From the NCBI RefSeq assembly GCF_030013205.1, contig NZ_CP122648.1: 64,000 nucleotides of DNA; one strand, written 5' to 3'. Below are positions 3,001-34,070 of this stretch, one piece after another. The notes beneath the pieces are model-generated. The model saw nothing but the letters and a program-made list of their open reading frames with translations. It was not told the origin of the DNA and made no database searches. This DNA is from Escherichia coli. Lineage in GTDB: Bacteria; Pseudomonadota; Gammaproteobacteria; Enterobacterales; Enterobacteriaceae. Within the stretch, counting starts at the first letter, position 1; every line of letters starts with the position of its first letter. The translations under genes were made by a program, and so were the position numbers.

Positions 3001-4087
3001 CAGGCTGCCAGGCTACTGTAGGTTGCGAAGGTGGAACATCAACAGAGGCAACAGGCGGCGTCTGAGTCACAGGTTCAACCGGCGCAGCCCAGCTTTGTGT
3101 CGCCGTGGTAGCAGCAGCTGCTACAGCAACAGGTTCGGTAATTGGCGCACCATTTAATAATGGATCGTATTCGTCATATTCTGGCTGCGTTGCACGATTG
3201 CCCGAAAAGAGGACGTCGTCAGGGTCGGCAGCCACACCGCGTGCAGTGTAGGTAATCTCTTCGTCATCATCCATCCGCTTACCGGAGAACAACGCAGCGT
3301 CTGTTTGCCGCCCCATCGGATTAATGAATTTTTCCGCCAACCGTTTACGACGCGCTAACGCGCCGCGAAGAATACGGGCACGGCGTGATTCATGCTGTTT
3401 GCCGTGATTTTCATCTTCATACTCTTCGTCATCTTCATACTCATCTTCATCGACCCAGGTATCATCGCGACGGGTACGATTACTGGCGAAGGTGAGAATG
3501 TTTAAAATCCAGCCGCCGAGTTTTTCAGCAATGGTCACCCATGACCAACCGGTGAACAGCGTCAGACCCGCAGCCCAAACGCAGAGCAGCGCAATAGTTC
3601 CCCCGCTACTGTGTAGCAGTGGTTGTAGCGTAGTGCTTAGTAAGCTGCCAATGACGCCACCGGAGGCAAAATACCAGATATCGTCAGCGTTGATTGCCGC
3701 CAGACCACAGGAGGTAAGGATGAGCGCCAAAACGCCAATGATGCGTAGCGAAACGGCAAAATAATCAATGTATTCGTCGCTGGACTGATGACGCCAGGCA
3801 AACCAACAACCGCCGACAATAATGACGGGAATGGTGTAAGCCATCACGCCAAAAATAAAGAACAGCGTATCTGCCAGCCACGCACCGGGCATCCCACCTA
3901 AATTATGGATAGGTTCATGCCAGGCCGTTTGCGACCAGCTGGGGTCCGAAGGGTTAAAGCTTAGTAAGGCAGCCATCAACCAGACGGCAAACAGGACAAT
4001 AAGGATCAGCAACGCCTCCAGAAGGCGGCGGCCGCTACTTAACTTTGTCAATGTGACTTCTTTGTCTTCAGTGTATTCCTGGCTCAA
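20..4087 (-). CDS. ftsK: DNA translocase FtsK
   Basis: 1355 aa ORF; N-terminal membrane domain, long PQ-rich linker, C-terminal Walker A (GTTGSGKS) motor domain; matches K-12 FtsK from memory. Confidence 0.95.
1565..1800. repeat. In-frame 39 bp tandem repeats in the ftsK linker (13 aa units of the type [13 protein letters not shown])
   Basis: Visible period-39 repetition of ggctgctgatactgcggctgcggtgcaaccggttgttgt and near-copies. Confidence 0.8.
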
Positions 4088-31566: not shown

Positions 31567-31991
31567 ACCCCCTCCAGAAATATGTGACTTATCCTTTACG
31601 CTGGCAGTATAACGGGAAAGGCCTTGCTAATACGTGATGACATCACATTTAAGCATGGCAAATGTCTGAAAAATGAGCGAATAATCGCGTTATACTCCCT
31701 CTTGCTGATAAGCCTGCAAAAACAACAAAATCAAATAATTAGCATGATAAATTATTTTTTATTACGCCTAAAGGATTAAATCTTTCGCTTGCACTACACT
31801 GTCAATCAGACAAATGACTATATGGGGCAACCCGCTGTTGCCCTAAATCAAATTTACTGGATTTATTTATCTGGCGAATGATTTGCCTTCGTTTTTAAAA
31901 TAGCCGCGCATTATTTCCGTCGTCACTTTTTTACGACGACCCTATAAAACGACCATATTTTTCACAGGGTCAATTTTTAATTGAGGTGGAT

Positions 31992-32687
31992 ATGTTCAGA
32001 AAATTAGCAGCTGAATGTTTTGGTACTTTCTGGCTTGTTTTTGGTGGCTGTGGTAGTGCCGTACTGGCCGCAGGCTTCCCGGAATTAGGCATTGGTTTTG
32101 CCGGCGTGGCGCTGGCATTCGGTCTGACCGTTCTGACGATGGCCTTTGCTGTTGGTCATATTTCTGGTGGTCATTTTAACCCGGCGGTCACTATTGGTTT
32201 ATGGGCTGGCGGACGTTTCCCGGCAAAAGAAGTCGTTGGCTACGTAATTGCCCAGGTTGTCGGCGGTATTGTTGCGGCGGCGCTGCTGTATTTAATTGCC
32301 AGTGGTAAAACGGGTTTTGACGCGGCAGCCAGCGGTTTTGCTTCTAACGGTTATGGCGAGCATTCGCCAGGCGGTTATTCCATGCTTTCCGCGCTGGTAG
32401 TTGAACTGGTATTGAGTGCAGGTTTCCTGCTGGTGATCCACGGCGCAACCGAGAAATTCGCTCCTGCTGGTTTTGCGCCGATCGCTATTGGTCTGGCCTT
32501 AACCCTGATTCACTTAATCAGTATTCCGGTGACTAACACTTCTGTTAACCCGGCGCGCAGCACCGCGGTTGCTATCTTCCAGGGCGGCTGGGCATTAGAA
32601 CAACTGTGGTTCTTCTGGGTGGTGCCAATTGTCGGCGGTATTATCGGTGGTCTGATTTACCGGACTCTACTGGAAAAGCGTAATTAA
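31992..32687 (+). CDS. aqpZ: Aquaporin Z
   Basis: 231 aa [21 protein letters not shown]...; two NPA motifs. Confidence 0.95.
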
Positions 32688-32697
32688 TTAACGCAGA

Positions 32698-32726
32698 AGG
32701 CCTGGCGCAATGTCAGGCCTTTTTTA
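32698..32726 (+). terminator. Rho-independent terminator of aqpZ
   Basis: aggcctggcgcaatgtcaggcct followed by T6. Confidence 0.7.
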
Positions 32727-32769
32727 AATATATTGATTCATCTTCCTGTTGCGCTCCTTGATGTGTTAA

Positions 32770-33020
32770 GCCACATATAGTCACTGGCGCAGGGAGCGCG
32801 CAGGGGGCGGCCAATCGCCGCCGCCCCCTGCACCCCCGGGCTCTGGCGAACAAAATCGCCGCTGCGCGGTGCCCTCGACTTATCCCTTACGGCTACCGGG
32901 TCGGGCGCGAGGTAACATCCCTGTAAAACGCGCCCTCAGCCCACATCCATGTGGGCTGCCCCGGCCTTCAGGGAACGCCTCGGCGATTTTGACGCCACCA
33001 ACACCGGTGCGGTTTGTAAT
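32770..33020. repeat. GC-rich structured intergenic element with nested inverted repeats
   Basis: Hairpins gggggcggc..gccgccccc and gcccacat..atgtgggc enclosed by a long-range inverted repeat ggcgaacaaaatcgccg / cggcgattttgacgcc. Confidence 0.4.
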
Positions 33021-33170
33021 TAAAACGCAAGAATATCTTTAAATGAAAATGAATACCCTACCGATCCTTATGCATAACATTTCCTTTTAATTGCAACTTT
33101 ACTCGCCCTTCCGCTTTCAGTAGTGTGTCATCGCGCATTTCGACTTCATCTTTGCAAGGACTGGGTTTTC

Positions 33171-34070
33171 ATGTTTTCTGGGCTGTTAATCATTCTGGTT
33201 CCCCTGATTGTGGGTTACCTCATTCCTCTTCGCCAAAAAGCTGCATTAAGAGTTATTAATCAGCTATTAAGCTGGATGGTTTACCTTATTCTCTTTTTTA
33301 TGGGTATCAGTCTGGCGTTTCTCGATAACCTCGCCAGTAACCTGTTGGCGATTCTGCATTATTCTGCTGTCAGTATTACCGTTATTTTACTGTGTAATAT
33401 TGCCGCCCTTATGTGGCTGGAGCGCGGTCTGCCGTGGCGCAACCACCACCAGCAAGAAAAACTCCCGTCGCGTATTGCGATGGCGCTGGAGTCGCTAAAA
33501 CTGTGCGGCGTAGTAGTGATTGGTTTTGCCATTGGCCTGAGTGGACTGGCTTTCTTACAACACGCGACCGAAGCCAGTGAATACACCTTAATTCTGCTAC
33601 TTTTCCTCGTCGGTATTCAGTTGCGCAATAATGGCATGACCTTAAAGCAGATTGTCCTTAATCGCCGGGGAATGATTGTCGCCGTGGTGGTGGTTGCCAG
33701 TTCATTAATTGGTGGTTTAATTAACGCCTTTATTCTTGATCTTCCCATCAATACCGCGCTGGCAATGGCCTCTGGTTTCGGCTGGTATTCTCTTTCCGGT
33801 ATTTTATTGACTGAATCTTTTGGTCCGGTAATCGGGAGCGCGGCGTTTTTTAATGATCTGGCCCGTGAGCTGATTGCAATTATGTTGATCCCTGGGCTGA
33901 TTCGCCGCAGCCGCTCTACCGCACTGGGCTTATGCGGTGCGACGTCGATGGATTTCACCCTGCCCGTTCTTCAACGTACTGGCGGGCTGGATATGGTCCC
34001 GGCGGCAATTGTTCACGGTTTTATTCTTAGCCTGTTAGTGCCGATCCTCATCGCCTTTTTCTCTGCGTAA
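33171..34070 (+). CDS. lysO: Lysine exporter LysO (YbjE)
   Basis: 299 aa from MFSGLLIILVPLIVGYLIPL. Confidence 0.9.
   Translation: MFSGLLIILVPLIVGYLIPLRQKAALRVINQLLSWMVYLILFFMGISLAFLDNLASNLLAILHYSAVSITVILLCNIAALMWLERGLPWRNHHQQEKLPSRIAMALESLKLCGVVVIGFAIGLSGLAFLQHATEASEYTLILLLFLVGIQLRNNGMTLKQIVLNRRGMIVAVVVVASSLIGGLINAFILDLPINTALAMASGFGWYSLSGILLTESFGPVIGSAAFFNDLARELIAIMLIPGLIRRSRSTALGLCGATSMDFTLPVLQRTGGLDMVPAAIVHGFILSLLVPILIAFFSA

Follow-up and report, generated by a model that had tools for sequence, protein, structure and literature searches.

We identify the GC-rich non-coding block between aqpZ and lysO in a 64,000-nt stretch of Escherichia coli DNA (contig NZ_CP122648.1; the whole stretch is referred to here as the window) with good confidence as the E. 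coli repeat TRIP1a, otherwise RRS-lysO (Replication Risk Sequence), that is, as a DNA-level chromosome element and neither a gene nor an RNA regulator. The element itself is already known, having first been catalogued as a repeat and later given an experimentally supported DNA-level mechanism. The original prediction had offered three possible natures for the block, of which the intergenic repeat class stands while the structured RNA and the miniature inverted-repeat element do not; it had also stated that a match to a catalogued intergenic repeat family would count against it, and such a match was found, because the sequence belongs to the family TRIP1/RRS. What the present analysis adds to TRIP1/RRS is a set of copies in other genera, a divergent subtype at asmA-yegH, a fold supported by covariation and the orientation of copies relative to their flanking genes. 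For work on RRS the side results are a covariation model that spans genera, natural inversion alleles and a resemblance to TwoAYGGAY RNA.

The gene order around the element is ybjD (−), aqpZ (31986–32687, +), lysO, also called ybjE (start ~33172, +), and hcp (+), so the location first given, between aqpZ and lysO, is right. The aqpZ stop codon at 32687 is followed by a terminator-like hairpin (32697–32727, with a T-run ending at 32727), and the element lies 157–158 nt 5′ of the lysO start. As delimited by its match to covariance model R1 (273.4 bits, the single match in the 64-kb window), the conserved unit occupies 32743–33015, which makes it 273 bp with a GC content of 0.65 and slightly bigger than the ~250 bp first noted. 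The contrast in composition that drew attention to the segment is real, GC being 0.62–0.72 over 32750–32999 versus 0.33–0.48 in the flanks. Neither a similarity search nor the covariance-model search revealed a second copy within the 64-kb window. Three mechanically called ORFs (46, 31 and 57 aa) overlap the segment; indels among the family copies are not multiples of three and the variation tracks base pairing and not codons, so that the claim of no ORF is correct in substance. A promoter/terminator scan found no sigma-70-like promoter and no terminator inside or adjoining the unit. The unit and its best-known motif are as follows.

32743..33015, minus strand (the G4-bearing ‘sense’ strand of Pham et al.): whole TRIP1a/RRS-lysO unit, from covariance model R1
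32818..32837, minus strand: G-quadruplex (G4) 20-mer GGGGGTGCAGGGGGCGGCGG, the polymerase-blocking site of RRS, exact match

Literature searches by sequence string or by classical repeat names gave no useful match to the element, and it was the names of the flanking genes that led to the TRIP1 and RRS papers (the idea that the 153-bp core might be an ‘RSA’ repeat was dropped). TRIP1 was first listed by Rudd in 1999 and re-surveyed in 6725 E. coli genomes by Li et al. in 2024 (PMC10888264). In the latter study TRIP1a is a 266 bp repeat of 62–65% GC with a predicted fold of −144 kcal/mol, placed 70 bp past the aqpZ stop, ~31 bp past the aqpZ terminator and 158 bp before the ybjE start, and the boundaries of the unit in the window agree with this placement within ~15 bp. 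The RRS of 222 bp near lysO and dusC were in turn reported to be the TRIP1 repeats of the 1999 screen (Pham et al., 2024, PMC11194060), and the same paper prints the RRS G-quadruplex motif as 5′-GGGGGTGCAGGGGGCGGCGG-3′. This 20-mer has one exact match in the window and none in 100 shuffles. Because RRS is TRIP1 (PMC11194060) and the motif occurs exactly once in the window, the segment is assigned to RRS-lysO/TRIP1a; locus, size, GC content and the exact 20-mer are the same and nothing essential differs. The copy in the window is 96.6–96.7% identical to the K-12 aqpZ-lysO copy (a difference of ~3%). K-12 records show the element at three places, in line with the partial third copy described for K-12, and the second full K-12 copy, at yohP-dusC, was recovered independently (94% identical). 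The published sister copies are TRIP1b at putP-ycdN (with a 125-bp internal deletion), TRIP1c beside yohI (dusC), TRIP1d at alx-sstT and TRIP1e at copA-ybaP, with copies lying in either direction and TRIP1 mediating chromosomal rearrangements (PMC10888264). From this set our searches independently recovered TRIP1c/RRS-dusC (yohP-dusC), TRIP1b (putP-efeU, with its internal deletion) and TRIP1d (alx-sstT).

The local structure described in the original prediction, two hairpins and a long-range inverted repeat, is present: there is a perfect 12-bp hairpin at 32800–32811/32820–32831 with an 8-nt loop, a perfect 10-bp hairpin at 32937–32946/32949–32958, and an inverted repeat of 16 nt at 32851–32866/32976–32991 (88% complementary) around the latter. 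The predicted fold of the 273-nt unit is −136 kcal/mol on the plus strand and −148 kcal/mol on the minus strand (ensemble free energies −141 and −151 kcal/mol), against shuffle means of −109 and −119 kcal/mol (z = −5.3 and −5.4); none of 200 dinucleotide shuffles was as stable. An alignment of 62 copies, with the structure taken from column-pair statistics and RNAalifold, resolves this into eight helices with 49 pairs. The alignment is read on the plus strand, the minus strand listed for the unit being the one that bears the G4, and the structural parts are listed below with alignment columns (no strand is assigned to them).

32752..32798: helix H1 (CGCTCC / GGGAGCG) with a variable 34-nt loop, columns 14–20/58–64
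32800..32831: helix H2, GC hairpin (GCAGGGGGCG / CGCCCCCTGC), columns 66–75/90–99
32851..32991: core closed by helix H3, CAAAATCG at 32851–32858 pairing with CGATTTTG at 32984–32991, columns 120–127/258–265
32859..32869: small helix H4 (CCGC TGC GCGG), columns 128–131/135–138
32897..32963: junction helix J, CGGG at 32897–32900 pairing with CCCG at 32960–32963, columns 168–171/234–237
32903..32935: hairpin H5 with inner stem H5i, loop ATCCCT (+), AGGGAU (−)
32937..32958: hairpin H6 (CAGCCCACA / TGTGGGCTG), columns 211–219/224–232, loop ATCCAT (+), AUGGAU (−)

Standard pairs fill 97.5% of the cells in these helices versus 38–45% when the partners are slid by one to three columns, changes on both sides occur at 28 of the 49 pairs (411 cells), and a covariation score as high as that observed was attained in none of 500 shuffles. 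Helix by helix, H1 is paired in 98.6% of cells with both-side changes in four of its seven pairs, H2 in 98.4% with eight of 10 pairs compensatory, H3 in 95% with three compensatory pairs (it has 8 bp here and 11 bp in the single-sequence fold), H4 in 98% with three of four, and H6 in 98.2% with seven of nine. Junction J, which encloses the two loop-conserved hairpins, is identical in all 62 copies. Read on the minus strand, the loop of H6 is AUGGAU in 54/62 copies and that of H5 is AGGGAC in 26, AGGGAU in 20, AUGGAC in five and something else in 11. The strictest conservation thus falls on junction J, the helices and the two loops (AUGGAU and A-N-GGA-Y on the G4 strand). The covariance model R1 built from the family alignment gave 86 matches among the loci examined, including divergent ‘partner’ copies at 80–117 bits.

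Two features of this conservation bear on what the element does. In 77 copies the pair cells comprise 3486 Watson–Crick pairs, 57 G-U and 29 A-C pairs (both as read on the plus strand) and 45 other mismatches, and one pair, which on the other strand is loop, accounts for about 40 of the 57 G-U cells. As an A-C on the plus strand is a G-U on the minus strand and both are rare, neither strand shows an RNA-type tolerance of wobble pairs; an attempt to assign a strand from wobble pairs was uninformative, the two counts being similar as well as low. This almost purely Watson–Crick compensation fits a DNA-level structure, or a structure that is needed on both strands. The other feature concerns the G4 motif, which overlaps the fold in that the 3′ arm of H2 is part of it on the opposite strand. 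The exact 20-mer is kept in only 16 of the 62 family copies, and although a loose pattern of four G-runs is found at the site in 61/62, this is weak evidence in GC-rich DNA. The parts that the covariation fold marks as constrained are H1–H6, J and the two loops, and do not include the exact G4 20-mer. A model based on the G4 only leaves the conserved eight-helix fold and the two loops unexplained.

According to published work, RRS is a conditionally essential chromosome-structure element that makes replication gaps to either side of the Ter macrodomain, RRS-lysO and RRS-dusC each lying ~650 kb from dif (PMC11194060). The evidence reported there for K-12 is that both loci present the G4 strand as template for lagging-strand synthesis; that Pol I, II and IV are stopped by this strand in vitro, while in vivo it cuts M13 replication by Pol III to about half; and that RecA and SSB are loaded in a gap on the lagging strand that begins at RRS and extends up to ~2 kb. 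When RRS is relocated with its orientation kept, a new gap peak appears, whereas inverted RRS gives no RecA/SSB gap peak and a supercoiling landscape resembling that of the double deletion; deletion of both native RRS requires a 200-kb amplification, an extra RRS elsewhere or inverted RRS in place, and deleting or inverting both alters supercoiling genome-wide (PMC11194060). The ‘topological relief valve’ and the possible role as a Ter macrodomain boundary are those authors’ hypothesis (PMC11194060). In NC_000913 the unit is on the minus strand (3014–3287 (−) of the extracted K-12 locus) and therefore the G4 is on the top strand, the lagging-strand template of the right replichore. With respect to aqpZ and lysO the element in the window points the same way as in K-12, and we infer that it would act as it does there, assuming the same position and direction relative to oriC. 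In K-12, as shown in PMC11194060, the G-rich strand (the minus strand in the window, with the G4 at 32818–32837) folds on the lagging-strand template once the replication fork has unwound the element, blocking polymerases and slowing Pol III; synthesis of the lagging strand then resumes further on, and a short-lived single-stranded gap, up to ~2 kb long, is left to load SSB and RecA.

Other genomic copies, which the original prediction had suggested looking for, are plentiful. By blastn the element is found in 5425 of 5426 complete E. coli genomes, the closest records being swine ETEC genomes such as NZ_CP062203. The total is 18,856 places, from one to 10 per genome and with three as the median (the published figure for TRIP1 is zero to five per genome, PMC10888264). 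Apart from aqpZ-lysO, the E. coli sites are yohP-dusC, which is occupied throughout the matches listed, alx-sstT and putP-efeU, with both full and internally deleted forms, and the element is also found at torD-yeiP. A divergent Escherichia subtype (77% identity) is present at asmA-yegH, truncated in K-12 and full in JJ1887. Beyond E. coli, where the sources were mislabelled chromosomes in a plasmid collection and a scan of species-representative genomes (so that the count of genera is a lower bound), the family occurs in at least eight enterobacterial genera, those among the matches listed being Escherichia, Klebsiella, Citrobacter, Enterobacter, Raoultella, Kluyvera, Pseudocitrobacter and Mangrovibacter; within Escherichia it is also present in E. 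albertii, E. whittamii and Escherichia sp. E1V33. One Klebsiella pneumoniae chromosome has it at 13 places. In Citrobacter two subtypes, 68% identical, face each other as convergent pairs with a conserved AT-rich stretch of ~60 bp between them, and inverted partner copies are found in Kluyvera, Pseudocitrobacter and Enterobacter too; such C-type partner copies are absent from E. coli. Its many copies in other genera, at loci unrelated to Ter, give the element the look of a dispersed repeat rather than of a chromosome organiser acting from two sites. Copies lie 40–120 nt past stop codons. For 40 copies with both neighbours called, by ORF calls that are crude, the element (E) lies between convergent genes (>E<) in 16, between genes in the same direction in 12 (<E<) and 10 (>E>) and between divergent genes (<E>) in two, so there is no orientation bias relative to the neighbouring genes and copies are depleted between divergent ones.

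The orientation of the element is itself polymorphic. Roughly one quarter to one third of E. coli genomes have the aqpZ-lysO copy turned round with respect to the flanking genes, a figure that refers to the 90–95% identity class that includes the inverted alleles (1840 of 5435 records), orientation having been checked directly in two; the published counts for TRIP1a are 1255 reverse versus 3448 forward (PMC10888264). The inverted alleles include those of O157:H7 and E69 and have different spacers on both sides, and the aqpZ terminator hairpin found before the element in the window is missing from the O157-type allele. The same inversion polymorphism, its share likewise put at about one quarter to one third, exists at yohP-dusC, where K-12 and an APEC O2:K1:H7 strain differ and 3316 of 5425 genomes are K-12-like. 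The two orientations do not differ by a mere flip. Inverted copies at aqpZ share 95% identity with the putP-efeU copy versus 91% with the K-12 aqpZ copy, and for the inverted yohP copy of E69 the figures are 95.8% with the K-12 aqpZ copy versus 92.8% with the K-12 yohP copy. These identities indicate exchange between loci, and closest relatives that often sit at another locus fit the TRIP1-mediated rearrangements described before (PMC10888264). Alleles differ by replacement or inversion of the whole spacer, and no empty sites with target duplications were found among them.

These natural alleles matter for the mechanism, as the inverted lysO and dusC alleles have the configuration that abolished gap peaks in the laboratory. 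Because inverted RRS gives no gap peak in the laboratory and inverted alleles are common, the gap mechanism cannot be assumed for all of them; and since both RRS are inverted in natural E. coli lineages, an action that does not depend on a lagging-strand G4 is conceivable. It is a tentative suggestion, which we rate well below the identification itself, that the selected feature is the whole eight-helix single-strand fold with its two invariant TCC/GGA loops and not the G4 alone, and that the action is perhaps independent of the G4; examples of such an action may be a hairpin platform recognized by a protein or a two-state topology switch.

One alternative to a DNA-level element is that the minus strand encodes an RNA of the TwoAYGGAY type whose two GGA hairpin loops bind a CsrA dimer, as a sponge or in cis, and we consider this very unlikely. 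The Rfam scan suggested at the outset, covering the window region and 22 related loci, brought no family up to its gathering score, and the only recurrent match was TwoAYGGAY (RF01731), a family defined by two AYGGAY terminal loops and a closing P1 stem that is often very long (PMC2864571) and proposed to bind CsrA (PMC4333381). The match in the window (32853–32992, minus strand) scores 30.6 bits against a gathering score of 43 and 16 other matches score 26–40 bits, all under that threshold; they do fall on the same strand in every copy tested, whether full-length or core-only. The architecture is shared as well, a closing stem (H3, with junction helix J inside it) around two hairpins with loops AUGGAU (54/62) and A[G/U/C/A]GGA[C/U], and against the CsrA SELEX consensus RUACARGGAUGU (PMC4347634) the minus-strand sites UUACAGGGAUGU and CCACAUGGAUGU match at 11/12 and 9/12 positions with the GGA in the loops. 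By the strict AYGGAY pattern, loop 2 qualifies in only nine of 62 copies, most having AGGGAC or AGGGAU, and the ACA portion of the CsrA motif changes together with its stem partner, being GCA in 34/62 copies. No promoter-like site was found, the minus strand is antisense to both neighbouring genes in the window, the orientation of the element flips between lineages, and there is no strand-specific wobble signal. In the part of the K-12 data of Potts et al. (2017, PMC5694010) available to us, neither a CsrA CLIP-seq peak nor a significant change in the csrA mutant is seen for dusC, ybjE or asmA. A DNA-level function is moreover directly supported by experiment, and the structured RNA put forward originally finds no backing in either the Rfam scan or the wobble counts. 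Compared with TwoAYGGAY as described by Weinberg et al. (2010), the element has in common the long closing stem, the inner stem, the two hairpins with A-Y/R-G-G-A-Y loops on the G4-bearing strand and, with the Psychromonas members, the presence of several copies in one genome; it differs in its extra H1/H2 domain, in a second loop that is mostly ARGGAY and in that no common sequence beyond the loops has been demonstrated. Possibly what Rfam lists as ‘TwoAYGGAY RNA’ in other bacteria is a DNA element of this kind. Pattern matches in Collinsella, Lachnospiraceae and others are chance or coding matches, neither members nor relatives of TwoAYGGAY.

It is unlikely, though less so than the RNA, that the element is a dispersed palindromic repeat, selfish or neutral and resembling REP/BIME at a larger size, which persists in intergenic regions at gene 3′ ends and is moved by recombination or gene conversion, with the effect on replication a by-product of its fold. 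The variable copy number (1–10 places per E. coli genome), copies that are often closer across loci than within one locus between lineages, internal deletions between short direct repeats, the many or paired copies in Klebsiella and Citrobacter and the presence of other repeats or insertion sequences at loci that carry the element are all as expected of such a repeat. Set against this are the published conditional essentiality and topology effects (PMC11194060), the occupation of aqpZ-lysO in nearly all complete E. coli genomes and of yohP-dusC throughout the matches listed, the maintenance of the fold by compensatory change across genera and the fact that no match to the element was found in phage records. 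The fold, extremely stable on both strands, together with the position of the copies 40–120 nt past stop codons and the enrichment of convergent-gene spacers (16/40), would also suit an orientation-independent transcript-end element whose hairpins shield mRNAs against exonucleases or insulate adjacent transcription units. Such protection or insulation is reported for some REP/BIME elements, and the absence of the aqpZ terminator hairpin from the O157-type allele also speaks for this role. This role is nonetheless marginally less probable still than the CsrA-binding RNA: the scan found no terminator-like U-tract, aqpZ in the window already has its own terminator-like hairpin at 32697–32727, and in the part available to us of one data set the dusC and ybjE transcripts are unremarkable (PMC5694010). 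A cis-regulatory leader of lysO (a riboswitch or attenuator) is the least credible of all. The element is highly structured and lies 157 nt before the lysO start, as a leader might; it is also found at unrelated loci, mostly 3′ of genes, and in either orientation at aqpZ-lysO itself, and it matches no riboswitch family in Rfam. Its distribution and orientation effectively refute a leader function.

The identification as TRIP1a/RRS-lysO also has to be set beside other repeat classes. REP elements are imperfect palindromes of ~35 bp with the conserved arm CTTATC(A/C)GGCCTAC, and the sole match to this arm in the window is at 49702–49715, far from the element; the conserved central core of ERIC/IRU elements, represented by the ERIC2 primer AAGTAAGTGACTGGGGTGAGCG, has no match in the window at up to three mismatches, and there is no match to the REP-derived naRNA4 of Rfam in 32000–33800. 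The statement that the segment is neither REP nor ERIC is therefore borne out. It resembles REP/BIME elements in being a GC-rich extragenic palindromic repeat found 3′ of genes and rarely between divergent ones, and some BIMEs act at the DNA level through gyrase binding (as cited in PMC11194060). The difference is that REPs are single hairpins of ~35 bp in hundreds of copies whereas the element is ~270 bp with eight helices in a handful of copies. As a separate observation, a REP follows the element at a fixed distance in Klebsiella. A miniature inverted-repeat element was rejected: the ends of the unit are not inverted copies of each other, so there are no terminal inverted repeats, conservation fades gradually at the ends, and there are neither target-site duplications nor clean insertion alleles. 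The pilE G4 of Neisseria gonorrhoeae is the only other bacterial G4 that triggers replication gaps according to PMC11194060; it is a single G4 serving pilin antigenic variation, whereas RRS is a conserved multi-hairpin repeat flanking Ter. boxC/PIT is likewise a GC-rich intergenic repeat of E. coli proposed to adopt a non-B DNA form, consisting of purine and pyrimidine blocks of ~56 bp for which an intrastrand triplex has been proposed (PMC4666352); it was excluded because it is such a purine/pyrimidine triplex motif, the element being made of mixed-sequence Watson–Crick hairpins. A boxC-like block fills the alx-sstT spacer of K-12, where other strains have TRIP1d.

In natural E. coli the RRS at aqpZ–lysO and that at yohP–dusC are each found in two orientations relative to the flanking genes, as seen by comparing loci from other genomes (L002/L003 2482-2755 and L133 558-831, all such loci being numbered in their own coordinates) with the window copy (32743-33015) and L006 2496-2770. 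K-12 and SCPM-O-B-8794 carry the RRS forward at both loci and O157 and E69 carry it inverted at both, while in Escherichia sp. E1V33 the orientations at the two loci look mixed. At both loci the spacers around the RRS are unlike between the orientation alleles. Close behind the aqpZ stop the window has the following feature:

Window 32696-32727: intrinsic-terminator-like hairpin with T6, arms AAGGCCTG and CAGGCCTT, 9-nt loop

This hairpin was not called by the terminator scan, its 9-nt loop probably being above the limit of the scan. It is missing from the O157-type allele, the spacer of which is wholly different from that of the window. For E. coli SMS-3-5 it has been reported that the 1.3-Mb segment between TRIP1a (the aqpZ–lysO copy) and TRIP1c (the yohP–dusC copy) is inverted (PMC10888264). 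On the yohP side of this strain (L134 1447-2823) likeness to the yohP–dusC region of K-12 breaks off within the copy on that side; about 270 bp beyond this point lies a transposase gene of the IS110 family. One other strain, ES2, has IS1A inside the yohP–dusC spacer.

Divergent, deleted and replaced copies, and paired copies in Citrobacter, are found at these loci:

L136 2517-2791 (JJ1887): divergent TRIP1a relative between asmA and yegH
L135 2501-2676 (K-12-like): the asmA–yegH copy, truncated
L005 2460-2591: internally deleted copy
L012 1501-1639: internally deleted copy
L009 3047-3444 (K-12 alx–sstT spacer): purine/pyrimidine-block repeat, CCCTCGCCCC...GGGGAGAGGGTTAGGGTGAGGGG...CCCTCACCCC
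L010 1393-1998: Citrobacter convergent pair (others in L034, L049, L050, L100, L109, L111 and L122)

The asmA–yegH copy, absent from the list of five TRIP1 types in PMC10888264, is about 77% identical to TRIP1a and scores 265 bits with the covariance model built from 62 family copies (R1); in K-12-like strains only its left half remains. The L005 and L012 copies have lost the two-hairpin core by deletion between the short direct repeats CCGGGG and CCCCGG, and the internally deleted form at putP–efeU corresponds to the published TRIP1b. In the alx–sstT spacer of K-12 the block repeat, which by appearance resembles boxC/PIT, stands in place of the TRIP1d found there in other strains, and what the two alleles have in common is confined to the outer part of the spacer.

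The Citrobacter units form convergent pairs of two subtypes that are 68% identical to each other, with about 60 bp of conserved AT-rich sequence at the middle, and the whole composite is about 610 bp long. Inverted partners that are even more divergent adjoin a standard copy in Kluyvera, Pseudocitrobacter, Enterobacter and Mangrovibacter (L046, L066, L105, L119 and L055). In the right flanks of four of five Klebsiella copies (L008, L011, L067, L068 and L081), linkers of about 45 nt that resemble one another separate the unit from a REP (GTAGGCCGGATAAGGCGCAGCCGCCATCCGGC); L008 has a different linker, yet its REP lies at a similar distance from the unit. It therefore seems that in Klebsiella the repeated unit includes the REP. 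The window itself probably has a REP/BIME at 49702-49715, because this is its sole exact match to the REP arm CTTATCCGGCCTAC.

Copies lie directly 3′ of two TerC-family genes, alx (L004) and yegH (L136), and of a manganese-transporter gene, sitD (L011), in each case with the G4 strand (the strand carrying the G-quadruplex 20-mer) co-directional with the gene; this adjacency is probably coincidental. The alx leader in L004, which we would expect to give a yybP-ykoY-type match, is absent from the permissive Rfam scan listing of L004 3813-4094. Near-identical enterobacterial copies also occur on contigs labelled Bacillus sp. (L123, 583 bp), Desulfacinum MAG (L026), Sporobacter termitidis MAG (L081) and ‘Proteobacteria’ MAG (L045), and these non-enterobacterial labels are likely to be due to assembly contamination or mis-binning.
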